Of a stretch of 19,212 bases of DNA, positions 2,602-19,212 are shown piece after piece. The DNA comes from a bacterium (GTDB lineage: Bacteria; Hinthialibacterota; Hinthialibacteria; Hinthialibacterales; Hinthialibacteraceae), in the NCBI GenBank assembly GCA_963663405.2, contig CAXXSM010000064.1, forward strand, positions 1-19,212, read 5' to 3'. Position 1 is the first letter of the stretch. Each line of letters starts with the position of its first letter. Below the pieces are notes generated by a model that worked only from the letters and a program-made list of their open reading frames with translations, did not search any database and was not told the DNA's origin. A program made the translations under genes and the position numbers.

Positions 2602-3676
2602 ATTTCAATCCTTTTTTCTCGACTAATTGTTCTAGTTTGTTAGCGATTTTCTCTGGGGGAAGCACGTACTGCGCCGCTTGTAGTTTCACGGCTTCACCCG
2701 GCATCCCAAAAATTACGGAACTATCCTCGTCCTGCGCTATGGTGATTGCGCCTTGTTCTTTCATTATTTTCAGTTCTTCCGCCCCATCTCTGCCCATCCC
2801 GGTCAATAAAATTCCCACCGCATTCGGTCCATAGGCGGCATTGACCGAACGAAACAGATAGGATACCGATGGGCATATCTCATGCGGTAGTTCCTTCCGG
2901 CAAAGCTGAATTTGTCCTTGGTGATTAACCCCCATCTGAAATCCATCTGGAGCGAGGTAAATATTCCCTCCTGTAATTATATCTCCAGGCGCCGCAATAT
3001 GAATAGGAAGTGTAGTGGACTCGGAAAGCCATTTCGCAAAACCAGGCAGAAAACCGGGAGCGATATGTTGAACCACCAGGATCGGCAAGGGAAAATTTTC
3101 CCCTAGTTGGGATAAAATGGTCTGCAAGACCAACGGGCCGCCGGTGGAAGCGCCGATGGCGACGATCTGGATTTCCCTCGATAGCCAGTGATCTTTCCTT
3201 TCTTCGATTGGAGGTATTTGAAACGGGCTAAGATTCGCAGATTTTTTTTCTATCAGGCTAGGCCAACGCCGGACCACTTTCATCTCGGACATAAATTTCA
3301 CCATCTGGATCAGTTCTTTCGCCATAACTTCGTGATCCGGATGACCGATACCGCTGGGTCGAGGAAGAATGGCCAACGCGCCAGCTTCCAAAGCCCGAAA
3401 AGTGGTCGCTACTTCCACCGTGTTCCAACTCCCGCTGACGATTACAATCGGAAGCGGACAGGTCTCCATAATACGGCGAGTGGCTTCAAATCCGTTCATA
3501 CGCGGCATGTTGATGTCCATAGTGATCACATCCGGTCGTTGGCTTTGCAAGAACTTCAGCGCTTCTACACCATTGTTCGCGGTTCCTATAACATCAATCT
3601 CCGGATCGCTTTTGAGAATATGAATCATAAATTCCCGGATAACCGGCGAATCTTCAACAATAAGAACTCGGATCAT
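2585..3676 (-). CDS. cheB: Chemotaxis methylesterase CheB with N-terminal REC (WspF/FrzG-like)
   Basis: REC (IVEDS, MDINMP) plus methylesterase motifs GASTGGP, VVQHI, LLTGMGRDGA and FGMP. AAGGAGG RBS upstream. Overlaps the start of the downstream kinase. Confidence 0.96.
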   Translation of the reverse strand: MIRVLIVEDSPVIREFMIHILKSDPEIDVIGTANNGVEALKFLQSQRPDVITMDINMPRMNGFEATRRIMETCPLPIVIVSGSWNTVEVATTFRALEAGALAILPRPSGIGHPDHEVMAKELIQMVKFMSEMKVVRRWPSLIEKKSANLSPFQIPPIEERKDHWLSREIQIVAIGASTGGPLVLQTILSQLGENFPLPILVVQHIAPGFLPGFAKWLSESTTLPIHIAAPGDIITGGNIYLAPDGFQMGVNHQGQIQLCRKELPHEICPSVSYLFRSVNAAYGPNAVGILLTGMGRDGAEELKIMKEQGAITIAQDEDSSVIFGMPGEAVKLQAAQYVLPPEKIANKLEQLVEKKGLKYEYPD

Positions 3677-3695
3677 TACCGTATTTAAGCCTCCT

Positions 3696-6033
3696 TCATA
3701 TCAATCTCTGAATCACTTCGAGTAGATTGCTCTGATCGAAACTGCTTTTAACAATGTAAGCGTTCGCGCCGACATCGATACCGTGTTCCCGGTCTTCTCG
3801 CGACTGGAGCGCCGTCACCAAAACCACAGGCAATTCAGCCAATTTGGGATCCCGGCGGATTTTTCCCGTCAATTCAAAACCGTTCAGTCTGGGCATATCG
3901 ACGTCAGAGACCACCAGATCAAATTCCGCGGTGTGTAGATGGGTTAATGCGTCCATTCCATCCACCGCCGTTTTGACTTCATAACCGGCCGTTTCCAGAA
4001 TATTTTTCAGGAGAGTCCGAGACGTAATGGAATCTTCCACCACCAAGATCGATTGCTGTGCAGCGGTTCTTTCCCCGGGAATAGTTCCGACACCCGATTG
4101 AGATGGAACCGTCCGTCGACGCATAGCCGATTTCATTAAATCCGAAACGTTGAGGACCGGGATTACCTTGCCTGCTCCCAAAACTGTGGCGCCGTCGATG
4201 TTTTTCACTTGCTTCAATTGAGGCCCTAAATTTTTAACGAGGACTTCTTGTTCCTGGAGTATCTCGTCAACCTGAAAGGCGATCCGGTTCCGGTTCTCAT
4301 GAAGAAAAAGAATCGGAAAGGGATCGGATGCTGGAGCGGTTGATTGGGAAGGCGTTTCCAATACATCGCTGAGACGCACAAGAGAAATCACTTTACCCTT
4401 CAATTCAACGGTTTCTTGGTTTTCCACGGTCCGGATCGCGTCGGGAAGGATTTGTTGTACCCGTTCTACGTGGTTTGTGGGGATCACATAAAATCGTTCA
4501 CCCACTCGAACTGTGATTCCCCGATACGTGGCCAGCGTTCGAGGCACGACAATTCGGAACGTGGTTCCCTCATCCGGTCGGGAATGGATTGAAATGGAAC
4601 CACCCAAACTCTCTACCTTTTCCCGCATAATCGCCAGTCCAAGGCCACGGCCGGATATATCGGTGATGACCGGACTGGTCGAAACGCCGGAGTGGAAAAT
4701 CAGCGAATGAATCCCGGATTCGTCAAGCGTTTCCGCGGCTGACGAGGATAGGATCCCCAGTTTTATTGCGATGTTCTTGACTTTGGCGTGGTCGATACCG
4801 GCTCCATCATCGGATATACACATCTCGACCTTGCCGCTGCCAATTTGTGAAATTGAAAGAGTGATTACTCCCCGCAAGGTTTTGTTTTTCCGCTTTCGTT
4901 CTTCCGGTGTTTCAATGCCGTGGTCGATGCAATTCCGCACAATATGAAGGAAGGGATCTTTGATCTCCTCAATGATTCGCCGGTCAATTTCTATTTCCCC
5001 TCCCGCAATTTTCAGGTCCACCTCTTTTCCGCAATCCCGTGATAGATCGCGCACAAACTTGGGAAAAATTTCCAGCAAGGATTGAACCGGGAACATGGCT
5101 GTCTGTTTCATATCCTCCAGGAGATTATCGATCATCCGGCCAAGGACGAGATGATCATGATCAAACTCCTCCTTTAGAACCGCCACCCGGTTTTCCAGGT
5201 CATTGGCGTGTTGGTGGTTCCAGTCGAGAAATTCTTGCAGTTTGGCTAATTGACGTTTTCCGGATGAGTTCCCGACATTTGTTTTTTCCAATCCCTTCAG
5301 GAAGGTCGGGAGATCGGAATGGATTTTGATCCACTCCTTTTTCCAATCGGCTAACAGACCATGAATCGCACGCAATTCCGCACCATGCCGAGTGGCGGCA
5401 ATTTTCGCAAAAATCAGTTCTTCCACTTGGAGGAGAAGAGAATTCAAACGAGTTGTGGAAATGCGCACGTTTTCCGTCAGCGCGGGCTTCGGCTCGTCGG
5501 CGGGTGGTTCGCTTTCCGCTTGTGTGGGCTTCGGCTCGCTGGTGGGTGGTTCAATTTCCGCTTGCGTGGAAGGAAGAATTTTCACTTCCTCCTTGGATGT
5601 CGTTTTCTCACCAGCAGACAAATTCCCCTGCGCCGCCGCTTCCAATTTGTGGAGTATCCCTCCCGGAAGAATCCTTTCTCCAACGGCGGATTCATCGGAA
5701 AATTTGAGCAGACTGTCCAGAACATCCACCGCCTCGTGCAGAATGTCGAACAAGGAGGGTGAAAGGGGGATAAAATTACGTTTCAAGGCTGAAAACACGT
5801 TTTTCAATCGATTGGCATAGTGTCTCGATTTCTCCAAAATTGACCGCGCGCGCCGCTCCCTTCAGGCTGTGTGTTTCTCGATAAGTGGTCTCAATGATTT
5901 CTTTTTGTTTCTCGATCGCCGGGATTTTCTCCAAATCCAGGAGACCGGATATCATCGTCTGCCGGTGTTCGGCTGCTTCGATCTTAAACGTAGCCAGGAG
6001 TTTTTTGAAAAACTCTTCGTTGTTGACATTCAT
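3696..6033 (-). CDS. cheA: CheA-type histidine kinase with C-terminal REC (WspE/FrzE-like), ~778 aa after fixing one frameshift at ~5800-5804
   Basis: The Hpt domain (RETHSLKGAAR) in ORF 5776..6033 joins ORF 3696..5837 by removing one T from T5 at 5800-5804 (CQSIE-NVFSALK). Also HIVRNCIDHGIE, DDGAGID, SGRGLGL, a CheW-like domain and REC (VVEDS, SDVDMP). Confidence 0.95.
5484..5567. repeat. Two tandem copies of a 42-bp unit in the CheA linker
   Basis: 5484-5525 versus 5526-5567 are identical at 36/42 positions. They encode TQAEIEPPTSEPKP and TQAESEPPADEPKP. Confidence 0.85.
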
Positions 6034-6042
6034 GGAGTATAT

Positions 6043-7680
6043 TTATACCTCATACTGCAAGACCAGTTGTTTAAGTTTCTGCCCCAGCTCATTCAGGTTT
6101 TGCGCGGCGGTCTCCACCTGTTTGGAACTGGTCACGTTCAGGGCGCTGGCTTGATTGATATTTTCCATAGCCTGGGCGACCTGATCGACGCCGATTAATT
6201 GTTGTTGAATGGAAGCGGATATTTGAGTCGCGTTCTGAAAGGATTCGGTGACGTTTTCCGCTAACAACCGAATCACATCCCCGCTCTCTTTCGCATATTT
6301 CTCACCTCTTTCCACTGCCTTGGTCCCCTGCTCGGTAGCCATCGCTGTTTGGCTTACGGATGTAACGATATTGTTCAATATGGCGCGCACTTGTGTTGTC
6401 GCCTGTTTGGATTGTTCCGCCAATCGACGGATCTCCTCCGCCACCACGCCGAATCCTTTTCCCTGATCGCCTGCTTTCGCCGCTTCGATAGCGGCATTGA
6501 CAGCCAGGAGATTCGACTGATCCGCCAAATCACTGACCACCGCTATGATTTCTCCGATGGTTTGGCTCTGTTCGCTCAGACGCAGGATATTCTCATTAAT
6601 GGATTCCATTTGTTCCCGGATGTGATTCATTCCTTCGATGGATTCCTCCACCGCTTTCTTCCCGGTCTGGGAAGTCTGTACGGTTTTCTGCGCGCTGTCG
6701 GATACATTCTTGGCTTTTTGAGTGGTGACTTGGGCGGTCTGTTTGACTTCTTCAACCGTGGAAGTCGTTTCATTGACCGCGGTCGCGGTTTCCACCGCCG
6801 CAGAGGCTACCTGGGAACTCGCTGTCATTATCTCTGACGCTGAAGTTCCGAGTATGTTGACGCCTTCAACGATTTCACGGATTATTTTTTGAAATTTCTC
6901 AATCATATTTTTAAATGTATTGAGTAAGATTCCCATTTCATCCGCTCGTGTCTCCGTCCTGATTTTCATGCGTAGATTTCCTGCAGTCACTTGCTCCGCT
7001 ATATTGGAGATTTCTTTGAGCGGATCAGCAATAATCCGATTCATGAAAAGAACTATTGAGATTCCCAACAAAAGGGCAATCCCCGCGATGATCAAAAAGA
7101 GGAAATTAGAAATTCTCGCCTTAGTAGTGGAGTCATCCATTAGACGCTGCGCGTTGGTTATGGCGTCATCGACGAGTTCTAGCGAAATATCCCGAAAGTT
7201 ATCATAATTATCGTCCTGTATACCTAGGGATAAATCTTTAGCTTCCTCTAGTTTTCCCTCTTGAATCAAAGGGATAACTTGTGTATCTCGGATTTGAGAA
7301 TAGGTTTCATGGATAGTATCCATTTTTTCAAATTTCTTGTACAATTCCGGCTCTTTTTTTAATAAATCAAGGAGAGTATTTATCCGTTCATCAATATTTT
7401 TCTTCACTTGTATGGTGTCTTGAATTATTTTTTCTTGATGTGTTTTGTCGGTTGATAACAATAATTCGAGTACAGCAACCCGCGAATGATTTATATGAGA
7501 TTTAAGTTCGATCAGATTGACGGAAAACATGAAATTACTCTCGAATAATGTTTTTTGTGATTTGTGCATAAACAGAATAACCGAGTAAGACACTCCAATT
7601 AGGATGGCTATAAGAAGAATCATGGATCCGAAACACAAGTAGAATTTCGAACGGGTTTTAAGATTTAGAAACCATTTCAT
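6043..7680 (-). CDS. Methyl-accepting chemotaxis protein (two TM helices, periplasmic four-helix-bundle-like sensor, HAMP, signalling domain; WspA-like)
   Basis: Two hydrophobic TM segments, HAMP (PLKEIS...DEMG) and the signalling hairpin QSNLLAVNAAIEAAKAGDQGKGFGVVAEEIRRLA. AAAGGAG RBS. Confidence 0.96.
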   Translation of the reverse strand: MKWFLNLKTRSKFYLCFGSMILLIAILIGVSYSVILFMHKSQKTLFESNFMFSVNLIELKSHINHSRVAVLELLLSTDKTHQEKIIQDTIQVKKNIDERINTLLDLLKKEPELYKKFEKMDTIHETYSQIRDTQVIPLIQEGKLEEAKDLSLGIQDDNYDNFRDISLELVDDAITNAQRLMDDSTTKARISNFLFLIIAGIALLLGISIVLFMNRIIADPLKEISNIAEQVTAGNLRMKIRTETRADEMGILLNTFKNMIEKFQKIIREIVEGVNILGTSASEIMTASSQVASAAVETATAVNETTSTVEEVKQTAQVTTQKAKNVSDSAQKTVQTSQTGKKAVEESIEGMNHIREQMESINENILRLSEQSQTIGEIIAVVSDLADQSNLLAVNAAIEAAKAGDQGKGFGVVAEEIRRLAEQSKQATTQVRAILNNIVTSVSQTAMATEQGTKAVERGEKYAKESGDVIRLLAENVTESFQNATQISASIQQQLIGVDQVAQAMENINQASALNVTSSKQVETAAQNLNELGQKLKQLVLQYEV

Positions 7681-7710
7681 TATCTCTCTCCTTTATAGAA
7701 CTTTGATAAA

Positions 7711-8342
7711 TTATTCCTTATTTTCCATCAGCGAGATTTTGGAATCTCGCAAGATACTTTCCGCATGGAGTACGATTAATCGTTCTGACGTCACACCCCG
7801 CAAATAGTCGGCGTGGATTCCGGTCAAGGTGGACGGCGCTGGTTGTATGGTCATGACCGGTACTTGAGAAACACCAAGGATGACATCGGCGAGAACGCCG
7901 AATTTCATGGATTCATTTTCAATCACAATCACTTTATTGAGATCGGTCAGTCCCTTCTCCGGCAAATCAAAGAATTTTTTCAGATCGATAACCGACAGAA
8001 TTTCTCCCCGGACATGGATGATTCCAAGGACGAAAGGTGGCGTGGCGGGTAAAGGAGTGAATTCCCGTAAAAGAACGACTTCTTGCACATACGCCATCTC
8101 GATCGCGTAAGTTTCATTGGCCAACAAAAATGCCACCACATGCAACATTTCCTGGCCGGGTGAGTCGATCTCTTGGGATTGTGACAACAGTTGCGCCCGG
8201 CGCCTGTAGGATTCTCTTCTTTTCTTCGGGGGTTGGGCTCTCTCCCCATTCGAGCGCCTTCTGCGCCGATGCAATCCGTTGATGAATCTCGCGCCAATCC
8301 ATGCCAGGCCAATTCGTTTAAATCGTCTGCCGGTTTATTCAT
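7711..8342 (-). CDS. cheW: CheW adaptor with N-terminal helical extension (WspD-like position), ~209 aa after fixing two frameshifts
   Basis: The ATG at 8342 overlaps the repaired cheR stop (ATGA). Removing single bases at ~8309-8310 and ~8199-8200 gives MNKPADDLNELPGMDWREIHQR...ILQARAQLLS... continuous with the CheW core (YAIEMAYVQEV, PPFVLGIIHVRGEILSVIDL). Confidence 0.88.
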
Positions 8343-9863
8343 CCTGATTTCTCCGTCCAGATGGTGGATCGAATGATTTCCTCTAGTCTTCCGGCGGTCA
8401 ATCCCATCGGATTCTGGGAGAAGATCGTTCGGTTGATAATCCTCCAGCAAAGAAAGCGCGTTGGAATAATACTTATTGGACTGATTGATTTTTCCTTGCC
8501 GCCGCGTAAGATTGCCCAGGGTAAAATGCCCAAGAACAAATTGGGAATCGAGATAGAGCGCCCGTTGCAGTGACGCCACGGTTTCCTCCAGGTTTCCCAG
8601 TTCCTGAAAAATAATGGCTTGCAGATAATGCAGTCCCGCATTCAGCCGGCCGGCTGACAAGGCTTTTTCACACCACCCCAGCGCCTCTTGGAACTTGCCT
8701 TGGTTGGCGCAGATTCGTGCGAATAGAACCAATTCCTCCACTTTGCCTTGATGAAGTGATAACCGGTCCAAAAGCGCAGTCTCCACATCCTTGTAACGGC
8801 CAAGTTTATACAGCCGCAGGATTTCGTCAAATGAAGGAGGAGGCGGCGCCGGAACAACCGGTTCTTCAATCTTTTGCGGCGGATCTTCGATCGTTTCTAA
8901 AGGAAAATCGAGTTCGGGTAATGATTCAATGGGTTGATCCAACGAGAGAAAATCCACCGCTTTCGTTTCTTCCACTATTTTATCGGGGATATATTCTATC
9001 GTTCGCGCTGGTTGATTGTCCTTCCGGTACAAAGTTGTGTCAGTAAAACGAACTGACTGAAATTGAGAAAAAAGGTCCATGGATAATTCGCAAGGACTGA
9101 CAATCAGCCATCCCCCTTCGATCAGGGAAAGGTATAGATTTCGAATGACTTGTTTCACGATTTTGGGGCTGAAATACATCAGGACATTCCGGCAGAAAAT
9201 AATATCCATGGCGTTGGTGTTATTCGACAATGAAGGAAACGGATCTTTGGCCAGATTTAAATAGGAGAAGGTGACCCATTTTTTCAAGAAGGGAAGAATG
9301 TTAAAATGGGTATCATCTATTTTTTCAAAATATCGTTCTTGAATCCCTTCCTGCGTATTCCGAAACGACCAATTCCTGTAACAACCTTGCTCTGCCTTTT
9401 TCAGAAAATGTGGATTAATATCTGTGGCCAGAATCGTAATGTTCCAATCCCGCCAATTTGGGATGAATTGGTTTAATAAAATCGCGATGGAATACGGTTC
9501 TTCTCCCGTACAGCAGCCAGCGCTCCAAATTCGCACTCGCCGATCGTTTCTCGAGCGGGTATGAATCAATTCCGGAAAAATATGCTTTTCAAGAACATCG
9601 AAAGTTCTTTTTTCGCGGAAGAAATAGGTTTCCCCCACTGTCAGATGACTGGCCAGTGTTTCGATTTGTTCCTGGGTCAGCGGCGCTGACATCAACCACT
9701 GGATAAAAGTGCCGATCTCTGCATAACCAAATTGTTTAGCAATGGAAAAAATTCTGCTCTCGAATTCATGGTGTCGTTCTTTCGGATAATAAAGACCGAT
9801 TTGAGCGGCTACAAATTCGTTGAATTGACATAGCAGAGAGTCAGACAAGCGATTTACCATCAT
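8339..9863 (-). CDS. cheR: CheR-type methyltransferase with C-terminal TPR repeats (WspC/FrzF-like), ~507 aa after fixing one frameshift at ~8403-8405
   Basis: Motifs LTVGETYFFRE, RIWSAGCCTGEEPYS, ILATDIN and DIIFCRNVLMYF, plus TPR-like helices (ANQGKFQEAL, LQRALYLD). The true end PESDGLTAGRLEEII...SG* is recovered by removing one C. The ORF-track extension to 7980 is a frameshift artefact. Confidence 0.93.
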
Positions 9864-9868
9864 CTTGC

Positions 9869-10330
9869 CTATCCGTTGCTCAATAAGGCGACGGTTATAC
9901 CTTTCTCCTCTTCCAAGGATAGAAATTGATCAATGTTGTGAATCAATATGAGATCATTTTTTAGTTTGATCACCCCTTCCACATACTCTAAACCTGGAGC
10001 TATTTTCTCAGTTGAGATGATCGCGCTTTCCGTATAATCGATGATTTCCACAACCTTGTCTACGACCATCGCCACCATTCGGCTTTTCGTATGGGCGATA
10101 ATCATTTGATCATTTAAATCGATATCTCGTTCGGGCAAACGAAACCGGCGGCGAATATTGAGGACGGGAATAACAATTCCCGATAGATTTACCAATCCAA
10201 TCACGATATCCGGCGCTTTGGGTAACTCGGTCAGATCAACCGCCCGGATGACTCTTTCCACGATGGGCAGATGAAGAGCATAGCGATGTTCATCCAGTAG
10301 AAAGATCACCAAATGTTTCGTGTTGTTCAT
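9869..10330 (-). CDS. cheW: CheW adaptor (WspB-like position), 153 aa
   Basis: YALHLPIVERVI, LPKAPDIVIGLVNLSGIVIPVLNIRRRF and GVIKL motifs. Start at 10330 chosen because a GGGGAGAAGG RBS precedes it. Confidence 0.93.
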   Translation of the reverse strand: MNNTKHLVIFLLDEHRYALHLPIVERVIRAVDLTELPKAPDIVIGLVNLSGIVIPVLNIRRRFRLPERDIDLNDQMIIAHTKSRMVAMVVDKVVEIIDYTESAIISTEKIAPGLEYVEGVIKLKNDLILIHNIDQFLSLEEEKGITVALLSNG

Positions 10331-10585
10331 TTTCGCCTTCTCCCCCCGATACATAAGCATCGGCTAAACAATGCGCCTATTGAAATACGGTCGTTTCCCC
10401 CAACACTGCTCCCATTGATTTAAAGCATATTGCAACCTACTTCGGGTACATTCAATTTATAGAGAAAAAACACTCATTCAGAGACAATTCTCTGCGCTGA
10501 TAAATTGCGATTATCCATGTATTGTCTCTCTCTTGCAAATTCTAGTGCTAAATCGATATTTTACTACGTTAAAATGAAAAATAAA

Positions 10586-11601
10586 GGTTCATCCGGTAAG
10601 TGCGTACTTGCAGGTATGAAGCCCCAATATCTTGAGTTTAAAGAATTCTTGATCTCTATATCCATATGCTTGGCGTTTCAGTGTTTTGATTTTATTGTTG
10701 GTTCCTTCTAAAGGGCCCGTAGTAATAGGGCAGAGATGATAGTTCAAGAGACCCTGACGATGTTTTTCCAGCGAATAGGCCATATCTTCAATCAAACGAA
10801 CCTTGCTGCCCTTTGCATCCGCGATCCATTGATCTAAAAAGGTTTCCGCTTCTTCATATGTTTCACAATTCCAAAAGATTTCCCGTAGAGACTCTTTTAG
10901 ATAGTAGCCAGTTGCTAGCGATTGGTTGGCAGCCAAAGCTTCTTCAAGCCGTTTGGGTTCATCATAATCTTCATTCAAGTTTTCAGGATTTTTGAGCAAT
11001 AACCAACGGCTACCCTTCAGCATATCCCGCATCGTTTTATCTTTCATTTGGGTATAAAGTTCCCGTCGCAGACAAGAGAGATAGTGATTGAAGAGTTTCA
11101 TAACATGAAAACGATCATACACCATCACAGCTTTAGGAATGTTCTTTTTCACCGCCGAGGTATAGGCTGGAGACATATCCAGCGCAACGGCTTCGATTTT
11201 AGCGTGTGATGCTTTCAGCCTTTTCCAGAAGGGCTCTAAAGCATCAGCGCCTTTTCCATCCCCGACAAAAACGATGGCTCCACTCTTTATATCCATCACC
11301 ACGGTGAGGTAACGGTGACCTTTCTGAACCGCGATTTCATCGATTGCAATTCGGCGAAGTTTTTTAAGTTTGGGGCGGGCAAAACGTCGGTGCAAATACC
11401 GCTTTTCAATATCTTTTACCGTATCCCAGCTTACATCTAAATGGTTGGCGACTTCCAGCATCGTCACGTGACGACATAACTCTATAACTTGACGCTCGAA
11501 TGGGCGCGTGAACCTCTTATGAGGGTCGGCAAAGGGAATTTTAACTTGGCGCACGTCACCACATTCTTTGCATTCGATTCGTGGAATCCCGCAGATCAAA
11601 T
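10586..11601 (-). mobile_element. ISL3-family insertion sequence remnant, 5' part removed at the IS21 junction
   Basis: The transposase C-terminus ends ...GGATGAACC at 10586, a typical ISL3 right end overlapping the stop, next to an AT-rich flank. The other end is cut by the IS21 terminal TG at 11602. Confidence 0.85.
10589..11601 (-). pseudogene. ISL3-family transposase lacking its N-terminus
   Basis: Zn-finger half (CKECG), HTH (VANHLDVSWDTV), IAIDE, ALDMS, YDRFHV and LEGTNNKIKTLKRQAYGYRD. The first ~19 aa of ORF 10589..11659 are read from the IS21 terminus and are not transposase. Confidence 0.9.
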
Positions 11602-11648
11602 TGCTGACGGCGGTCGAAAAGTGAGCTTGCGGCGGTCGAAAAGTGCGG
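11602..11648. repeat. IS21 right-end (downstream of istB) terminal inverted repeat with a second transposase-binding repeat
   Basis: CGGCGGTCGAAAAGTG occurs at 11608-11623 and again at 11630-11645. Multiple subterminal repeats are characteristic of IS21 ends. Confidence 0.9.
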
Positions 11649-12084
11649 ATTTTTTCCAAGAATAATCGACTCCATTGTGAGTTGTCAATAGATGCTGAGC
11701 ATTATTTAATTGAAAGTCATGGTATTTAGTTTTTCAGTTACCATCCGATGATTGTACTACCAAGTCAAACGGAGATTGGCTCTGCTGGAGAACCCCCAAT
11801 CAAGGGATAACTTGGCGCAAGTGCGACGGATTGTCGTCAAGGGGACGATGAATGAGACTCGTCCCCTTCATCTTTTTGGCCAACGACAATCTTGAGCATT
11901 TGCCTATGCCTTAAAAAACTCTGGGGGTTTGGGGGCAAAAGCCCCCAATTTGGAGTAAACGGGTCGCTTGTGCCCGCTCGACTGAAATTCCAAGGACGCT
12001 CCATTTTTTATTCCCCTTCAAAAGATCATCTTCTGAGAGCCCAATTTTTTCGAATTCATTGGCCAACGACAGCCGGGGAACTCC

Positions 12085-12870
12085 TTAAGATTGAGAAGAC
12101 TCTTTTTTAGGGCGCTGTTTCAGCCGTTTTTTGGATTCCTTGAGCCGGTAACTTTCTCCATTGGCTTCCAGGATGTGCACTCGATGAGTCAATCGATCCA
12201 GGAGGGCCCCAGTTAAGCGCTCACTTCCCATCACTTCCGTCCATTCCTCGAAAGGTAAATTTGTCGTCACGATGAGACTGGTCCGTTCATAAGCCTGGCT
12301 GACCACATCAAAAAGAAGTTCCGCTCCCGCTTTGGAGAACGGAACATAGCCAAGTTCATCAATTAAAATGAGATGATGACGAGTCAGTTGGTTTTGGAAT
12401 TTTTCTAACGAGCGTTCTTCTCGTTTTTCGAGCAAGTGGGTGACTAAGGCGGTTGCCGTGTAAAAACGGACTTTGTAGCCTTGCGCGCAAGCGGCGAATC
12501 CCAAGGCACAAGAAATGTGAGTTTTCCCAGTCCCCGGATTCCCGATTAGGAGCAAATTCTCCCGTTTTTCGATATATTCCCCTTGGAGCAATTCACGGAC
12601 TAAGGGTTCATTAATCGACGGCTGAGCGGTGAAATCAAAGGTATCGATTGTTTTGACCACGGGGAATTTGGCTGCTTTCACTCGCCGATCCGCCGCCCTC
12701 TGATCCCGTTCGATCGATTCCAATTCAACCAGCCGAAGGAGATACGTGGTAAAATCAGAGCGGTCGGCGCGGCACTTAGCCGCCATGCTTTTATACTCGC
12801 GCAAGATCGTCGGCAGTTTTAATTTTTTTAAATAGTATTCCAGTAATACGTTCGATTGGGAGGAACTCAT
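12085..12870 (-). CDS. istB: IS21 helper AAA+ ATPase IstB
   Basis: LKKLKLP N-terminus, Walker A GNPGTGKT, Walker B LILIDELG, TTNLPF.EW, ALLDRLTHR and GESYR. Confidence 0.96.
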   Translation of the reverse strand: MSSSQSNVLLEYYLKKLKLPTILREYKSMAAKCRADRSDFTTYLLRLVELESIERDQRAADRRVKAAKFPVVKTIDTFDFTAQPSINEPLVRELLQGEYIEKRENLLLIGNPGTGKTHISCALGFAACAQGYKVRFYTATALVTHLLEKREERSLEKFQNQLTRHHLILIDELGYVPFSKAGAELLFDVVSQAYERTSLIVTTNLPFEEWTEVMGSERLTGALLDRLTHRVHILEANGESYRLKESKKRLKQRPKKESSQS

Positions 12871-14376
12871 AGCGCCCCTCCTTTCAGCATCCCCTGATAA
12901 GCGGACAAGTCAGGCGAATCGACTCGGACATACCGTAAATGGTCCCGGCCATCCAGACGGAATTTCTCCAGTCCTTCCCCTTCAGCCCCGTAGAGGTATT
13001 GCGCCACCACATCCCGCGTACAACCGCCCACGCGCAGCGTTTTTTTCCACGGCCCGGCTCAGTTCGGGTAATGAACGGGTTCGCAAGAGCTGAAGCACTC
13101 GAATGTATTCCCGAACGCCTTCTCCTCCTTCGAACTCATTTTCCAGCCGGCGGCGTAAAACCGAAAAACACGGGGGGAGGCGCCACTCGGTAAAAGGTTT
13201 CCCGTGATCCAGAGCGCCGGGTCTGGACGTGAGAAGAGGCAAGTAGTGCTCCGGTTTCAACGCCACTTGTTCCTTCTCCCAAATCCGCTTATGCTCCGCG
13301 ATCACTTTCTCTTGATAACAAAATACGACTCGATCGATATAGCCTTTGGCCACCAGGAGATGATGGGCGTACTCTATCGGGACCGAATAATCGTTACAGT
13401 CAAACCGGCCCAGAGACAAGGAACTGGCATGGACCTCGTCTTTCCGGCAGGCGTCAAATGGGGAAGGAGGAAGGGGCAAGAACGCCGATTGATCGGCCTT
13501 CAGCAACTCTTCTTTCGTTCCGGACCGGCCTCGTAACTTACGCTTCAAATTCTCCCGGCAATTCGCCTCCAATTTCTCATTCAATTCCTCCAACGTTTGC
13601 ACTTGAGGGACCGGGACCATGAAATTCAACCGCGCATATTTCACCGTTCCTTCCACTACCCCTTTTTCGTTGGGACGGCGGACGCAGCAAAAATGCTCTT
13701 CGAACAAATAATGACTTTGCAATTGCAGAAATCCATACGTTAATTTTCGTTTATGCGCTCCGATGATCTTGGACACCGCGACCCGGCTGTTGTCATAGGC
13801 GATTCGTCTCGGAACCGCGCCCCAAAAATGAAACGCTCTCACATGCCCTTCCCAGAACGTTTCCGTGCATTCCCGCTCACTGGTCATCACAAAGATCGCA
13901 TCGGAGTGAGGCAAGGTCATGACAAAAAAGGCCACTTTCTTTAACTCGCCCGCCAACTTCACCAACGCAAATCCGAAATCGACCTGCGCTTCACCGGCCG
14001 GATGAGTCAACGGAATGAACACATCCTTGGTATGCTTCTTCCATTCCCGCACCGCCTCTTTCACCTGGGTATAACCACCCTGGTAGCCTTCTTCTTTGAT
14101 CCGTTCAAAAATCCTTTGGGCGGTATGTTTCTGCTTCCGAGGGATCGCGGGATCTTGATCCGATTTCAGGATTTCGTGGATTCGGGACAGATAGGGGCCT
14201 AAGACGGGCTTCGGGCGGGCTTGCTTCATCCGGTAGCCGGGCGGCTCGGGATGGGTTAGAATCTTCTCCAAGGTCTTCCAATGCATCCCTGTCTCTTCCA
14301 AGATCTCGCTCTTCTTCTCCTCCTTGTTTCTTACTCGTATTCGGATATCAGTCCATTCTTTCATCTCGGTATACAT
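12867..14376 (-). CDS. istA: IS21 DDE transposase IstA, ~502 aa after fixing one frameshift at T7 13040-13046
   Basis: AQVDFG, YDN and NEKGVVE catalytic motifs. Removing one base gives ...VEKTLRVGG...PDLSAYQGMLKGGAL*, whose stop overlaps the istB start (ATGA). GGAGG RBS upstream. Confidence 0.94.
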
Positions 14377-14452
14377 CCTTTCTACCTCCGGAAGAAACTC
14401 GTCCGCTGAATTCTGACTTGAACGATTTCTTCCAGGTATCGGCTTTTATATA

Positions 14453-14514
14453 CCGCACTTTTGGACCGCCGTTTTTACGCCGACTTCTCACTCACTTTTC
14501 GACCGCCGTTTACA
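14453..14514. repeat. IS21 left-end (upstream of istA) terminal inverted repeat with a second repeat
   Basis: CACTTTTCGACCGCCG at 14493-14508 and CCGCACTTTTGGACCGCCG at 14453-14471 are reverse complements of the repeats at 11608-11648. Confidence 0.9.
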
Positions 14515-14855
14515 AGAATGTATTCAAAGATATGAAAGATCGAGATATAGGGAGCTGGTGGCCACTGCATCATTGGACCGACTCGAAAATCAAAGTTCAC
14601 GCTCTTTATTGTACAATTGCTATTCTATTACGATCTCTAATGATGTGTAGAATACGAAAAGCGGGTCTTTCTCTTTCAACCAAAAGAATTCATTCTGAAT
14701 TGAACGCGATTCGAGAGGTGATTAATATATATCCCCGTACACGTCGCAAGAAAACGGAACGAAAGCATGTAGTTTTGTCCAAAATCTCAGAATTACAGCA
14801 ACAATTGATTTCCATTCTTTCTCTTGATGAAATGGATTTTCAGGATTTAGGGTAA
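14515..14855 (+). pseudogene. C-terminal fragment of an IS1634-like (IS4 superfamily) transposase
   Basis: NVFKDMKD...WWPLHHWTDSKIKVHALYCTIAILL resembles the region following the catalytic Glu in IS1634-type transposases. The first ~32 aa of ORF 14418..14855 come from the IS21 end. Confidence 0.75.
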
Positions 14856-14927
14856 GATCTTGCCCTTCACATCATCCTGAAGATTCTTAAGATACGAATG
14901 CTTTATTTTATAAGTAGGAAACTCGGG
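14515..14927 (+). mobile_element. IS1634-like element remnant, right end only
   Basis: Transposase fragment followed by a probable terminus ...GGAAACTCGGG (14917-14927) then CTAG, at the point where the minus-strand secreted-protein ORF degenerates. The exact end is inferred. Confidence 0.6.
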
Positions 14928-15151
14928 CTAGGGACCAGATTCGTCCCGGATGTCCCATCGTTGCTCCATAAAATCTCACCGGTGGAAGTCACGATCGCAA
15001 ACTTGAAAAGCCCCGTCCCATCGAACGGCGATCCATCCACCATCACTCGTCCCTGGTACCCGATGATTCCCGGCACCGCTGCGCTCGCAAAAGATGTAAA
15101 AAACACGGAAACTAACAATACTGTGGTGAAACGAATCGTTCTCTCTAACAT
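14928..15151 (-). pseudogene. N-terminal fragment of a secreted/surface protein truncated by IS insertion
   Basis: GGAGG RBS, a signal-peptide-like N-terminus (MLERTIRFTTVLLVSVFFTSFASA-A), then VPGIIGYQGRV.VDG.PF.GTG.FKFAIV...LWSNDGTS, which resembles N-terminal modules of large secreted proteins. The ORF stops a few codons after entering the IS end. Confidence 0.7.
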
Positions 15152-15195: not shown

Positions 15196-15236
15196 AAAAA
15201 AACCGGGCAGCCTACAAACTCACTCAGGCGGCCCGG
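15196..15236 (-). terminator. Intrinsic terminator forming the riboswitch expression platform
   Basis: Minus strand CCGGGCCGCCT-loop-AGGCTGCCCGG followed by T7. The 5' arm overlaps the 3' strand of the aptamer. Confidence 0.85.
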
Positions 15237-15303
15237 CTGTCTCTTTACAAACAAGACCCGCAGCTTTCCGTCCCTGTCTCACAACAGGTTTGGCTTTATC
15301 TTA
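15224..15303 (-). promoter_or_regulatory. Cyclic di-GMP-I (GEMM-I) riboswitch aptamer
   Basis: Minus strand reads GATAAAGCCAAACCTGTT-GTGA-GACAGGGACGGAAAGCTGCGGGTCT...AGACAGCCGGGCCGCC. This matches the GEMM-I consensus (CAAACC, GNRA-capped P2, GGGACG.AAAG, P3, GCCGGG..GCC). It lies in the 5' leader of the 15151 gene. Confidence 0.9.
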
Positions 15304-15688
15304 TGGAACAAGCAATATCCCCCAACTCCACAATACAGAATCACAGAACAGCAAAATTACCCAGTATAAATCAGTAGGAATTCTATCATAACAATCAATT
15401 CTACGCAATAGATTATACCTTATTTTATACATAATTGCAAAAGATCGTTACAAATCTTTCCGGACTATATTTTGTAATTCTGTTTGATGGAAAAATATCA
15501 ACTTTTTCTTGTTCAATTTTACCAGTTAGCGACTGCGCAAACGTTTCCAACTCTGATTAACCATTGTTTCAATTCCTGGATTTCCCGATCTTTTTCCTTT
15601 CCTTTTCCTCCACTAAAATGGCAGTAAAGTTTGGCCGGGTTAGAGCGTTCAAATCCACGTAAATGGTATGTTCTGTCAAACAGCGGCT

Positions 15689-17295
15689 CTAATCGTCCGA
15701 TCCGTCGTATCGCACGTTCAGCCGTTCCAATTGATTCGACAAGGTTTGGTAATTATTAAACCCCAACAATTTCGCCGCTATGGTTTTCGAGCCGCGCGCT
15801 TCGGCCATCGCTCTCTGTAAGTAAATCCGTTGGATATCATCCAACAACAGGGATAGTTTAAACCCATCGCCCAAGGGTTGATCCAGCAGACTTCCTTGAA
15901 AACTCGGCATCCTCCATGATGGCGGCGGCGAAATCGTTTTCCTTCAACACCGAACCTTCCGCCATCACCATCGCCTGTAAGATCACGTTATACAACTCTC
16001 GTATATTCCCGGGCCAGGGTTGTTCTTTGAGAAATTTTTTGGCTTTGTCAGAATTTTTTTTCTTTTTATACCCCGGTTCATCGGCGGTCGTGAATTGCTG
16101 ATTCATTTCCTCTAAAAAATGTTGGGCCAGCAGGAGAATGTCGTCTCGCCGTTCCCGCAACGGAGGCAGTTTGATCGCGATCACCGCCAACCGGTAATAC
16201 AGATCCTCTCGGAATTCACCGTTCACCACCGCCTGCAATATATCTTTATTGGTCGCGGCGATGATCCGCACATCACTTTGGATCACTTTCTCGCCGCCGA
16301 CGGGAGAGAATTCCCGGCGCCAGGGAGTCTGGAGATCGAGCGGCTGCAAAACGCGCAGCAGTTTCACTTGGAGTTCCGGCGCCAATTCCCCGATTTCATC
16401 TAAAAACAAGGTCCCGGTATGCGCGGTTTTGAAGGCGCCATCCTTATCCTTGTGCGCGCCGGTAAACGCGCCTTTCACGTGTCCGAACAATTCCGATTCG
16501 AGTAAATCCTTGGGGATCGCTCCCACAATTGATGGCGACAAAAGGATTCTCTTTTCGATGACTGGTTTGATGTATCGCCCGGGCGAACAGTTCTTTCCCT
16601 GTGCCGCATTCCCCCAACAGAAGCACGGGCACATCACGCATGGCCGCTCTCTTCGCCCGGCCGGCCGCGTAACGTATGCTCTTGCTATTCCCCACAATAC
16701 GTTGAAATCCTTCTATTTCCTGTGGACTTTTACTGGCCAGACGCTGCCAATACGCGTCCGGCTTCCGCAGCAGTTCCGGGACGAAATCCACCGCGAGATC
16801 AAACGGGATTTCGGTCTCCCAGTACCGGTCTCGATGCGTCTGGTAAAACGTGGCGGGATACTTGCTCTTCCCCAACAGCACCCAGACGGCGGCCATCGCG
16901 GGCGTGCCGGGACTGAGATGGATGCACAACTCCGCATCGGCGTTCGTCCGTTCATTCAGGGACCGTCCCCAATTCCTGGTCAACCACGGTGAAAATCCCC
17001 TTGTAGTCCGTGGGATTGGCAATCTTCACCGGATGCGCGATCGCATTCGATCCAAGCCACCGGCAGAACTGGCCGGTCAATTTGGCGCCGCAGTTGCTCA
17101 ATAAATGGATTGCGTCGAACGAGACCTGATCCACCAAGACCTTGATGGGGCTTTGAATCTCATCCAATGGAGGACCGGGTGGACACGCGTCCAGCACGGC
17201 TTGTTGTTTCTTGGGCGGAAGTGTTTTGGCCAATCCCCCGAAGGTCGTTATGGCCGATCCAGGCGAACAACAGTTTTCCGATGAGTTTTTTCCAT
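15689..17295 (-). CDS. Sigma-54 enhancer-binding protein with RtcR/PspF-like CARF-type N-terminal domain, AAA+ core and Fis-type HTH, ~533 aa after fixing five frameshifts
   Basis: Stitched from pieces with single extra bases at ~17286-17291, 17235-17239, 16959-16961, 16522-16524 and 15911-15912. N-terminus [11 protein letters not shown] ... [17 protein letters not shown] (CARF-like motifs), Walker [50 protein letters not shown], and [13 protein letters not shown]. Confidence 0.88.
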
Positions 17296-17478
17296 GATAG
17301 AACCAGATTTATATTTTTATAAATATTCTTATTCACCGGGCGGGTGTCTGTCTACCCTTCCGACATTTGAAAATTATTGTATTTCTGCACGAAAACATCA
17401 ATATCCCCTTTATTTAAAGGGAATTTCCTACATTCGATCCAGCGGCGCCACCATCACCAGGACGACAGGCAAAGAGAT

Positions 17479-17494
17479 TGGCCTCTAGTTTGCA
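17479..17494 (+). promoter_or_regulatory. Sigma-54 (-24/-12) promoter for the JAB-E2 operon
   Basis: TGGCCTCTAGTTTGCA shows exact GG-N10-GC spacing against the consensus TGGCACG-N4-TTGCW. It lies 50 bp upstream of the 17544 ATG and divergent from a sigma-54 activator gene. Confidence 0.8.
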
Positions 17495-17543
17495 GAAGCA
17501 CACCCCAAGAGGCACAAAACAATTTGTTTGCTGTCTTTAGCCT

Positions 17544-18614
17544 ATGATGGAAAGGATCCGAACCTTGAATCCAGCGCCGGTCAACAATATCAATCATGTT
17601 CTCACCATTTACGAGTCGGAACTGCGAGTGATGGGCGGGTTGGCCTTACGAGGCTATCCGTTCGAATGCGGGGGCAATCTGTTTGGCTTTTACACCCGCG
17701 ATCGCTATCCCGTAGTCTCCCTGCTGACAGGCCCCGGCCCGAACGCCACCTGTGAACGTTTTCCATTTCGCCCAGGATTATGCGTTCTTCCTGCGCGCCA
17801 ACCAGTTCTTCCATGCGGAATTTGGAATCGAGTGGATTGGCGATTGGCATTCGCATCCCCATCCCGGCGCCAATGAGCCCCAGCCGGGGCGATTTGAATC
17901 AGGTTATGACGCTTACCCGCCGGAATCCCAACATCGATCGCTGGCTCGATATTATCGTCAGTTTTGAACGGAACCGCGCCCACAACCGGTTCTTTCCCAC
18001 CAGTGTACGCTCGGAACCCAGCGCCGTATCCATAAACGCGTTCCTGTATCCCGAGCCACAACAGGGACGGGCTTTACGGACGCCTCTCCGGGTCTTACCT
18101 GGAATGAGCCCGTTGCGGTCGGCGCTGGCCTCCAGGAACTCTCTCCAGCTATGCCATCCTGGCTCCTCCGTTCCGCAAGCGCCCATGGAACGGATTCGCT
18201 GCGAATCGATCGCGGACACAACAGAGCGATTTCATCACCGAAGCGTGGAGAATGACATCCTGGCAAATCAAATTCGCGATCTTCCCGAATCGGCGCAACA
18301 GGCGATTGAGATTGGGCGCGCGCTTGGCCTTCTGATCCTGACCATCCCCCATTACAGCCTCTTACATCGCGGTGATTGGTTTGAAGGAAAACGATCCCGC
18401 CTCCATTCTCAAGATCCTTATCAAAGATAACACGACCGATGAAACGCGGGATCTCACCTCCGCGTATGGCGCGAACGGCCGTTCGATCCGGCTAGGGACA
18501 CTCTATGAACGGCTTCACGCCCAAGCGGCGCGCCAACACAACGTGGATACCTGGTCGAAACTGCGGCCGCTAATAACGAGGTTCTGGCGGCCGTGGAGCG
18601 CCGTGCAATCCTAA
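17544..18614 (+). CDS. JAB/JAMM (MPN+) metallopeptidase domain protein with an unassigned C-terminal region, ~355 aa after fixing three frameshifts
   Basis: ORFs 17544..17876, 17752..17967, 17780..18430 and 18372..18614 join by removing one base each at T4 17759-17762, C4 17878-17881 and C5 18346-18350. This gives E-CGGNLFG, TGPGPNA and IGDWHSHPHPGANEPSRGD, the full JAMM signature E...HxH-x7-S-x2-D. Confidence 0.85.
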
Positions 18615-18671
18615 ATCCAATTCCCATTTGGGAAGGTACACCAAATGAACTTTGTAAAGGAGACCTAAACG

Positions 18672-19120
18672 ATGTGGACACAACAACAGAGAACGCGGTT
18701 GGCGATCGAAGAAAAATTACTGCAAAAATACATGCCCGATTTCAAGTTTTACGACCGGACCCAAAACACGTATATCGCCGGGATCGTCAACGGGCCCCAG
18801 GTAACGCAGGACTACACCGTCATGATCCCTCTCCCACTGGATTTTCCCTTCAGCAAACCGAAGGTGTATATCATCCGACCCGAGATTCTTCGGCTTTTTG
18901 GCGGCCAAGCGACCGTCAATTCCCTCTCCACATCCCACGATTTCCACACGTTGGAGAACGGGCCCAACGGCGTCGTCCAAATTTGTTATCTATCCATTGG
19001 GACGCCTCGATCACCTGCGTCAAAGCGATTCTCATGGCCCGGTTATGGCTTGTGGCCTACGAACAGCATCTTCTGACAGGCGAACCGGTCGCGCGGTATC
19101 TTGGCAAGCCGGAATCGTGA
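18672..19120 (+). CDS. Ubiquitin-conjugating enzyme (E2/UBC)-like protein, ~149 aa after fixing one frameshift at ~18994
   Basis: AAAGGAG RBS. N-terminal helix RTRLAIEEKLL (cf. UBC RL.KE), YTVMIPLPLDFPFSKPKVYI (cf. P.dYP..PP.v), H...G.VQIC (candidate active-site Cys), then after restoring one base W-DASIT (cf. W.p..t) and C-terminal helices ...LWLVAYEQHLLTG. Confidence 0.75.
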
Positions 19121-19188
19121 CAACGAAACGAGTGTGAATCCAAGACCATTGTTTACGATGGATCTTTACCCATGCAAAGGAGAACATC

Positions 19189-19212
19189 ATGTCAATGACG
19201 GAAGAAGAACGA
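19189..19212 (+). CDS. Start of a third operon gene (MSMTEEER...), truncated by the window edge
   Basis: AAAGGAGA RBS at 19176-19183 with an ATG at 19189. Open to the end of the window. Only 8 codons are visible. Confidence 0.6.

Follow-up and report, generated by a model that had tools for sequence, protein, structure and literature searches.

The closing 3.5 kb of the 19.2-kb contig C64 of genome G000 (positions 15689-19212 of the window, which is the whole 19,212-nucleotide stretch analyzed here) carry a putative RtcR-like activator gene divergent from genes for predicted ubiquitination-type enzymes. Bacterial E1/E2/JAB pathways (CBASS Cap2/Cap3, Bil and Bub) have recently been recognized as ancestors of ubiquitination and as immune systems. 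In an initial annotation of this DNA, a CARF-type sigma-54 activator, a sigma-54 promoter and a divergent operon of a JAB peptidase, an E2 and a third gene had been proposed, and all of these elements were located in the window:

15689..17295, minus strand: gene for an RtcR-like enhancer-binding protein, split into four open reading frames (ORFs) in the window and recognized by Pfam on the fragments
Same gene, minus strand, predicted domains: CARF-like N-domain (~16725-17295), sigma-54 AAA+ domain with GAFTGA, Fis-type HTH (15689-15910)
Same gene, minus strand, overlapping pieces from the ORF list: 15689-15910, 15858-16697, 16444-17022, 16952-17233
17403..17424, no strand: palindrome ATCCCCTTTA-TT-TAAAGGGAAT, from an inverted-repeat search, 90% complementary
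17479..17494, plus strand: sigma-54 type -24/-12 promoter motif TGGCCTCTAGTTTGCA (TGGCCT-CTAGT-TTGCA)
17544..18614, plus strand: predicted JAB/JAMM metallopeptidase with a C-terminal UEV/RWD-like domain, in three frames in the window
18672..19120, plus strand: predicted E2 (UBC-fold) gene, in two frames in the window
19189..19212, plus strand: first eight codons of an E1 (ThiF-type adenylating enzyme) gene, truncated where the contig ends

The components of the switch and of the ubiquitin-like machinery at the window end are real, and their pairing is seen in this one genome only. The third gene begins with an ATG at 19189 and reads MSMTEEER before the contig ends. These eight codons are identical to the start of a 497-amino-acid (aa) ThiF/E1 gene on contig C110, which bears out the expectation that an E1 would lie beyond position 19212.

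Genome G000 carries four copies of the locus, on C64 (the window), C110, C141 and C1. The segment C110:8704-12260 is 95% identical to window positions 15649-19212 and is intact from the activator through the gene for p221. The C110 operon encodes, besides the 533-aa activator, a 355-aa JAB-UEV/RWD fusion, a 149-aa E2, the 497-aa ThiF/E1, a DUF87, HerA/FtsK-like ATPase of about 920 aa, a 170-aa protein (p170), the 221-aa p221, a WD40 protein and a Ser/Thr kinase. The C141 copy, 13 kb long, is 98.8% identical to window positions 17781-19212 and has indels of its own, and the C1 copy is a fourth, diverged one. It was also seen that C110:8000-40000 aligns collinearly with C141:6775-34705 for more than 30 kb, at 88-94% identity and with numerous small indels; either a segmental duplication of large size or the binning of two related populations into one genome could account for this, which bears on how the four copies are to be read. 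At C141:34713-35423, in place of the JAB 5' end and the activator, lies an McrB-like AAA fragment, whose motif was recognized by eye.

The first operon gene is predicted to encode a JAB/JAMM metallopeptidase with an MPN fold. The HSHPHP motif is visible in the JAB ORF of the window. Against the Pfam family Prok-JAB (cut-off 25), the window fragment scored 16.4 bits, below the threshold, while the intact C110 copy scored 34 bits, above it. Residues E41, H102, H104, S113 and D116, forming the E..HxH..S..D motif, were invariant in 12 of 12 homologs. An AF2 model (pLDDT 75) found Rpn11 (5u4p) in Foldseek at 6e-8, with 222 matches at or below 1e-3, and VIA-align gave Z scores of 15.7-15.0 to DSY2949, a Caldiarchaeum Rpn11 homolog, Cap3 (15.1) and PfJAMM1, 12.3 to the Bil deubiquitinase 8tyy and 11.0 to BubCD. 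In a profile search of PDB sequences the only significant match was Cap3 (9ild, 2.9e-5), and a word-index homolog search with the JAB protein returned only the protein itself. The initial identification of this protein is thus supported by both the modelled fold and the motif.

Residues 233-331 of the JAB protein matched the FANCL central domain (Z 8.2), the Tsg101 UEV (7.4), the GCN2 RWD (6.7) and Ubc9 (6.5) in VIA-align. Since every match of this region lies in the UBC superfamily, we read the C-terminal domain as an inactive E2-like (UEV/RWD) domain, at Z scores that are middling. A ubiquitin-like protein (Ubl) hidden in the JAB C-terminus, as hinted at by the SF3A1 ubiquitin-like domain 1zkh (E 0.89), was considered and set aside, the fold search giving the UBC/UEV/RWD superfamily.

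The product of the second gene is a predicted UBC-fold E2, in agreement with the initial annotation. The 149-aa protein of the intact copy was modelled by AF2 with a pLDDT of 93.1; the top 50 Foldseek rows were all E2 enzymes with probability 1.00 and E about 1e-3, and all 50 VIA-align rows were UBC, UEV or RWD structures, the best being the CBASS CdnG-E2 8hsb (Z 10.1), with BubB at Z 9.1. The protein also matched the PADLOC E2 model PDLC00858 at 9.8e-10. Cysteine C105, within V-Q-I-C, was invariant in all 15 sequences compared and is, as predicted from this conservation, the catalytic Cys. Where a canonical E2 has HPN, the motif reads H-x-F-H-T-x-x-N-G-P. Sequence comparison was less telling: neither the window fragments nor the intact copy matched any Pfam family, UQ_con included, phmmer against PDB found nothing, and a profile search gave only weak E2 matches (E 0.02-1).

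The E1 of C110 matched Pfam ThiF at 8.6e-33 and, in searches of its sequence against PDB, generic ThiF/E1 entries only. In 14 sequences G212 and G215 of the GxGxxG loop and the cysteines of two CxxC zinc motifs (C346/C349 and C465/C468) were invariant. In the crossover region between the first CxxC and a conserved EPGLS, the same sequences have no invariant Cys, and Y374 and D376 are invariant.

To characterize the divergent activator, the window fragments and the intact 533-aa C110 protein were compared with family models. The fragments matched Pfam HTH_8 (24.3 bits, cut-off 22), AAA_lid_14 and two halves of Sigma54_activat, and the GAFTGA loop is readable in the ORF 15858-16697. The C110 protein matched the PADLOC model PDLC01995 (RtcR_PspF2--CARF_AAA_HTH) at 2e-168 over residues 7-526 and profile positions 2-480 of 481, and Pfam Sigma54_activat at 3.7e-66. 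By these matches it is a predicted member of the RtcR_PspF2 family, and the RtcR-like CARF-AAA+-HTH architecture agrees with the CARF-type sigma-54 activator initially proposed. PADLOC CARF models matched the protein at 2e-7 to 3e-6, CARF1 and CARF4 at residues 86-144 and Csx1/Csm6 at residues 7-159. The best NCBIfam model was RtcR (NF038308; 1e-97, profile positions 74-513). Since its score of 328 bits lies below the RtcR equivalog cut-off of 650 and no rtcA or rtcB adjoins the activator in this locus, the protein is RtcR-like but not RtcR proper.

The activator family is linked to defence. In a search of 35 genomes of the window's phylum with the N-domain, homologs were found in five other genomes, and the four best were examined for family membership and neighbours. 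All four are members of PDLC01995 (2e-118 to 1.6e-196), and all four adjoin defence genes: one a type I restriction-modification system (hsdR-hsdM-hsdS) with a TGGCATACGTTTTGCA promoter between activator and hsdR, two others type III CRISPR-Cas loci (Csm3/Cas7 fusions, CARF-HEPN, Cas1 and Cas2), and the fourth an NsnB/AriA-like ATPase pair with a -24/-12-like motif ahead of it. This agrees with the placement of RtcR homologs beside restriction-modification systems and CoCoNuT superoperons in the available portions of two publications (Makarova 2014, PMC4012209; Bell 2024, PMC11090510). In the loci L067 (G015:C8) and L068 (G021:C108), the RtcR_PspF2 activators lie within type III CRISPR-Cas loci beside CARF-HEPN and then small vWA-domain genes, and L068 has -24/-12-like motifs nearby.

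Beyond the three enzymes, the operon has a conserved set of partners. The core order JAB, E2, E1, HerA-like ATPase, p170, p221, WD40 and kinase recurs in 28 other loci of several phyla, namely G000:C1, G033, G017, G032, four genome records labelled Planctomycetota, Bacteroidales, Deltaproteobacteria and Phycisphaerae, and 20 metagenome contigs, many of which are too short to show all genes. Some of the core loci carry three more conserved genes. The JAB query matched 6 of 35 genomes of the window's phylum, and in a 401-genome sample of the phylum of G038 (labelled Phycisphaerae), the genome on which the sample was centred, the only full-length match was in G038 itself. The distribution of the system is thus sparse and patchy. 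Upstream of JAB, the other loci have an ECF-type sigma factor, an XRE-HTH protein or a TPR protein. The recurrence of activator, JAB and E2 that the initial annotation had named as its own test was not borne out: JAB and E2 recur, together with E1 and five more genes, while the activator never does. As it never accompanies the core elsewhere, the CARF/sigma-54 link is lineage-specific and not a feature of the system.

Taken together, our results are best explained by a ubiquitination-type core system that, in the window and C110 copies, has acquired a sigma-54 promoter and a divergent RtcR-like activator, with a conflict or defence role as the likeliest and the frameshifts of the window copy as artefacts. 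We give this explanation a probability of roughly 60%, and it includes the view that G000 has four copies of a large unnamed system of this type, one of them at the window end. The activator gene would be transcribed from its own sigma-70-like promoters, and its CARF domain would bind a small nucleotide or RNA-end signal, freeing the AAA+ ring to open the -24/-12 promoter, so that the E1/E2/JAB machinery and its partners would be made only under that stress. E1 and E2 would then conjugate a protein C-terminus to targets, possibly that of an operon protein as in type II CBASS, and the JAB-UEV protein would process the conjugate or reverse the reaction. The analysis shows the identities and folds of the domains, the order of the genes, the recurrence of the core, the joint occurrence of promoter and activator and the defence genes beside other members of the activator family; we infer the ligand, the induction, the conjugated moiety and the defence role.

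Several observations weigh against this explanation. The CARF call is based on hidden Markov models, with Pfam Cas_Csm6_CARF at 13.9 bits for a cut-off of 27.5, and the sequence of the activator N-domain gave no meaningful match to PDB sequences. The activator is present in none of the 11 other core loci with at least 0.6 kb upstream of JAB; tblastn found no sigma-54 activator match in any other core locus, and the activator query, run on five further genomes that have the system, met generic AAA+ parts only, never the CARF part. Within G000, the C141 copy has neither the activator nor the 5' end of JAB, C110 has split genes for the WD40 protein and the kinase, insertion sequence (IS) elements flank the window copy, and rpoN was not found in this 82% complete genome. 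No Ubl family matched any operon protein in scans of the Pfam, NCBIfam and PADLOC sequence families, the operon as a whole matches no PADLOC system, and no phage link was seen. Of the ubiquitin-like system initially proposed, the E1/E2/JAB part is supported and, in these sequence-family scans, the Ubl part is not. To describe the locus as a CARF-controlled ubiquitin-like system in the sense of a conserved unit is overstated, whereas its sigma-54 control is plausible.

The role in defence is open to a different reading, which we regard as unlikely, namely that the E1/E2/JAB-HerA-WD40-kinase system is a signalling or protein-quality pathway of large-genome bacteria that merely borrows a stress switch here. 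WD40 proteins and TPR-containing Ser/Thr kinases are typical signalling parts, and four copies in one genome would be unusual for a defence system; the sparse and patchy occurrence (G038 alone in the 401-genome sample, six of 35 genomes in the window's own phylum) argues the other way. The PADLOC check suggested by the initial annotation gave no whole-system match, and the ECF-type sigma factor, XRE-HTH and TPR genes upstream of JAB elsewhere are not known defence genes, but the activator family stands beside defence genes in all four other cases examined and the McrB-like fragment adjoins the C141 copy. Moreover, the characterized bacterial E1/E2/JAB operons named in the available part of the Bub preprint are all antiphage (bioRxiv 10.1101/2024.11.21.623953). 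A role of the system in conflict or defence is most likely.

The window copy is itself broken by frameshifts, as had been recognized initially, and these are real in the assembly. Compared with C110, the window has eight extra bases (at 15911, 16522, 16959, 17232, 17278, 17759, 17878 and 18346) and lacks one base at 18994, just past the E2 Cys codon; five insertions fall in the activator, three in JAB, and the single deletion in E2. All nine indels change the length of a homopolymer by one. An alternative genetic code or programmed frameshifting was rejected, the indels being length differences relative to an intact paralog of 95% identity.

To check the indels against reads, Logan contigs of four public runs (X1-X4) from three studies were used. 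Contigs with the frame-preserving length cover all nine sites, and in X1 this length makes up all of the depth at seven of them. Record 8 of X1 has no substitution relative to the window over 625 nt (18450-19073), where C110 has 12 differences, and restores the missing E2 base. The covering contigs of X2-X4 differ from the window at several positions and are all without the extra bases. Counting likewise against our explanation, the frame-preserving depth in X1 is only 4.5 of 12.1 at 16522 and 6 of 10 at 18346, for only one of the nine indels do the reads bear on the window's own allele, and the five activator indels are covered in X1 by a C110-like allele (42 substitutions relative to the window, for 47 between window and C110). 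The dN/dS ratios between window and C110 are 0.12 for the activator, 0.27 for JAB and 0.08 for E2. The rpoB gene is intact in the assembly, which is therefore not error-ridden overall; errors cluster in multi-copy regions.

Since the indels are homopolymer changes, frame-preserving contigs exist, X1 record 8 restores the E2 frame, dN/dS is low and rpoB is intact, the nine frameshifts are probably uncorrected homopolymer errors in a multi-copy region and not gene decay. It is rather unlikely that the window copy is instead a dying pseudogene in an IS-rich, rearranged region, with the C110 copy, if any, as the only working one. Nine frame-breaking indels in 3.6 kb would suit decay, but all of them are one-base homopolymer changes, eight being insertions, and none occurs on any independent contig of the four runs, with X1 depth partly frame-preserving at 16522 and 18346. 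No read contig of the window's own allele spans the five activator indels, yet a contig of that allele restores the E2 frame. An ISL3 element, an IS21 element and a transposase fragment directly upstream, beside a truncated neighbour gene, fit a degenerating region, as do the 5'-truncated C141 copy with its own indels and the split WD40 and kinase genes of C110; dN/dS values of 0.08-0.27, and an intact rpoB in an assembly whose errors cluster in multi-copy regions, do not. Frameshifts in the multi-copy regions of this assembly should thus not be taken as pseudogenes without a read check.

The promoter motif TGGCCTCTAGTTTGCA lies 65 nt ahead of the JAB ATG both in the window and in C110, where it reads TGGCCTCTGTTTTGCA; the GG and GC elements are retained and the changes are confined to the spacer, in an intergenic region where window and C110 share 96% identity. 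The loose pattern TGGC-N8-TGC, with 3 occurrences for an expectation of 1.7, does not exceed chance, as 44 of 200 shuffled sequences contain at least as many. The strict pattern TGGC-N7-TTGCW does exceed it, with 3 occurrences for 0.30 expected, a number that none of 200 shuffles attains. Besides the intergenic motif, the strict occurrences are TGGCGGGATACTTGCT (16851-16866, plus strand) and TGGCGCCGCAGTTGCT (17083-17098, plus strand), both within the activator gene, which is encoded on the other strand. Both point towards the JAB operon and may reflect coding constraint or extra sigma-54 sites. The palindrome at 17403-17424, about 55-75 nt upstream of the -24 element and mostly conserved in C110, is a candidate binding site of the activator.

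Where 400 nt ahead of JAB were available, both loci with the activator (window and C110) carry the -24/-12 motif and none of the 11 loci without it does. Promoter and activator come and go together, which supports a functional pair and favours sigma-54 control of the operon here; as they are confined to these two loci, it was a single lineage that acquired them. The source organism uses sigma-54, since G000 has 36 Sigma54_activat matches and 33 of 35 genomes from the phylum carry rpoN. That the activator is a mere neighbour regulating something else, with a chance or unused -24/-12 match ahead of JAB, is very unlikely: the activator is missing from all other instances of the system, the loose pattern is not above chance and the strict matches at 16851 and 17083 show that the motif can arise in coding sequence, but the motif in question is intergenic, correctly oriented 65 nt ahead of the first gene with no other plus-strand gene downstream, is retained in the paralog while its spacer varies, occurs only alongside the activator (2 of 2 versus 0 of 11 loci) and, in relatives, also lies between activator and defence gene.

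As no beta-grasp gene was found in the sequence-family scans, the conjugated C-terminus may be that of an operon protein, as in type II CBASS. The HerA-like protein has the Walker A sequence GxxGxGKT, and its profile gathered 2348 cluster representatives at E <= 1e-30, of which the ten looked up were unnamed metagenome proteins. The other partners are the coiled-coil p170, a helical protein of about 220 aa (p221), a WD40 propeller protein of about 620 aa and the Ser/Thr kinase with TPR repeats. In the ESM Atlas, p221 gave no usable match and the HerA N-domain matched only 'hypothetical' clusters and DUF8128.

The p221 C-terminus has a hydrophobic residue followed by Gly-Pro and then 3-17 variable residues in 10 of 13 homologs, and the conserved tail motif, seen in the C110 copy (L004 16995-17660) and homologs, is L-x-S-L-G-P. 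To judge from this sequence pattern, the tail looks like a processing or conjugation site. In p170, 6 of 17 sequences have GG within the last eight residues. By analogy with CBASS, the tail of p221 or p170 may be the moiety that is processed by JAB and activated by E1. A complex prediction for E1 and p221 gave no support, scoring 0.00 for a mark of 0.32 with the fold of the partner uncertain, and counts neither for nor against this idea. A bolder version, which we consider quite doubtful, is a system without any beta-grasp modifier, in which the tail of a helical operon protein (L-x-S-L-G, then Pro and a variable stretch), once processed by JAB, would be conjugated by E1 and E2. A HerA-like motor, a kinase and a WD40 protein acting as sensor would cooperate with them, and in this lineage all would stay silent until damaged RNA ends or a cyclic nucleotide are sensed by the RtcR-type CARF protein. 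If true, such a modifier-less, CARF-switched system would be the first link of RNA-damage sensing, sigma-54 and protein conjugation, and an undescribed class of bacterial conflict system.

The surroundings of the locus were inspected as well. An Rfam scan of 15689-19212 gave no match. At 15223-15303 (minus strand) lies a c-di-GMP-I-GGC riboswitch (RF03167, 68.2 bits, E 1.6e-14), in the leader of a truncated gene for a secreted repeat protein (14903-15151, minus strand) whose full 518-aa homolog is at C110:7003-8559. Three consecutive mobile-element remnants (ISL3 transposase, IS21 istA/istB and a transposase fragment) occupy 10589-14855, between a chemotaxis gene cluster (48-10360) and the activator locus, and pieces of them also occur on contigs C141, C55, C7, C28 and C36. 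Within the chemotaxis cluster, the CheW ORF 7711-8274 and the CheR-TPR ORF 7980-9863 (minus strand) overlap by about 295 nt in different frames, which may be due to a mis-called start or another indel.

The E1/E2/JAB-HerA-WD40-kinase family appears undescribed, having no name in PADLOC, Pfam, NCBIfam or the literature searched, whose coverage is incomplete. The locus shows a further, larger family of E1/E2/JAB operons, comprising a JAB-UEV fusion, E2, E1, a HerA-like ATPase, a WD40 protein and a kinase. Its sigma-54/CARF switch offers an experimental handle and predicts that the pathway would not be transcribed before a nucleotide or RNA-damage signal arrives. The known cargo of RtcR-like defence regulators would thereby be extended from nucleases to protein conjugation.

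Compared with known systems, the locus shares with RtcR/rtcBA of E. coli and Salmonella a regulator with a CARF-like N-domain, sigma-54 AAA+ domain and HTH, whose gene is divergent from a -24/-12 promoter; it differs in that the target is an E1/E2/JAB operon and the best PADLOC model is RtcR_PspF2, not RtcR. The activators of restriction-modification and CoCoNuT loci, as described in the portions available of PMC4012209 and PMC11090510, are of the same regulator family and also adjoin a conflict-type operon, but the cargo in our locus is a ubiquitination-type system. For the pairing of such an activator with E1/E2/JAB, no description was found in the literature searched, whose coverage is incomplete so that prior mention is possible. 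The pairing may be new, as had tentatively been suggested initially; RtcR-like control of defence operons is already in print for restriction-modification systems and CoCoNuTs, as the accessible parts of these two papers indicate.

Among the conjugation systems, Bil (BilA Ubl, E2, JAB and E1; operon type 6d of Iyer 2006) likewise has separate E1, E2 and JAB genes, and the E2 Cys of our family is mostly followed by His (VQICH), as in type 6d (PMC1779556). Unlike in Bil, no match to a Ubl (BilA) was found here, JAB is fused to a UEV/RWD-like domain, and five or more extra conserved genes are present. The Bub/6E systems are similar in that an inactive E2-like (RWD-type) domain accompanies JAB (type 6e, Iyer 2006, PMC1779556), but the E2 of this locus has an invariant Cys where the Bub E2 is of the serine type. 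Pfam scans of the operon proteins gave no DUF6527/BubE match, and the Bub regulators named in the accessible part of the preprint are CapW/BrxR and CapH with CapP, not a sigma-54 activator (bioRxiv 10.1101/2024.11.21.623953). Type II CBASS differs from the locus in that no CD-NTase model matched any of the eight operon proteins, no CBASS-type effector is present, and E2 and E1 are unfused. In common with Cap2/Cap3, however, the CBASS-derived JAB, E2 and E1-E2 models of PADLOC are the best defence-library matches, if with weak scores, and the lack of a Ubl match suggests that the tail of one of the system's own proteins is conjugated.

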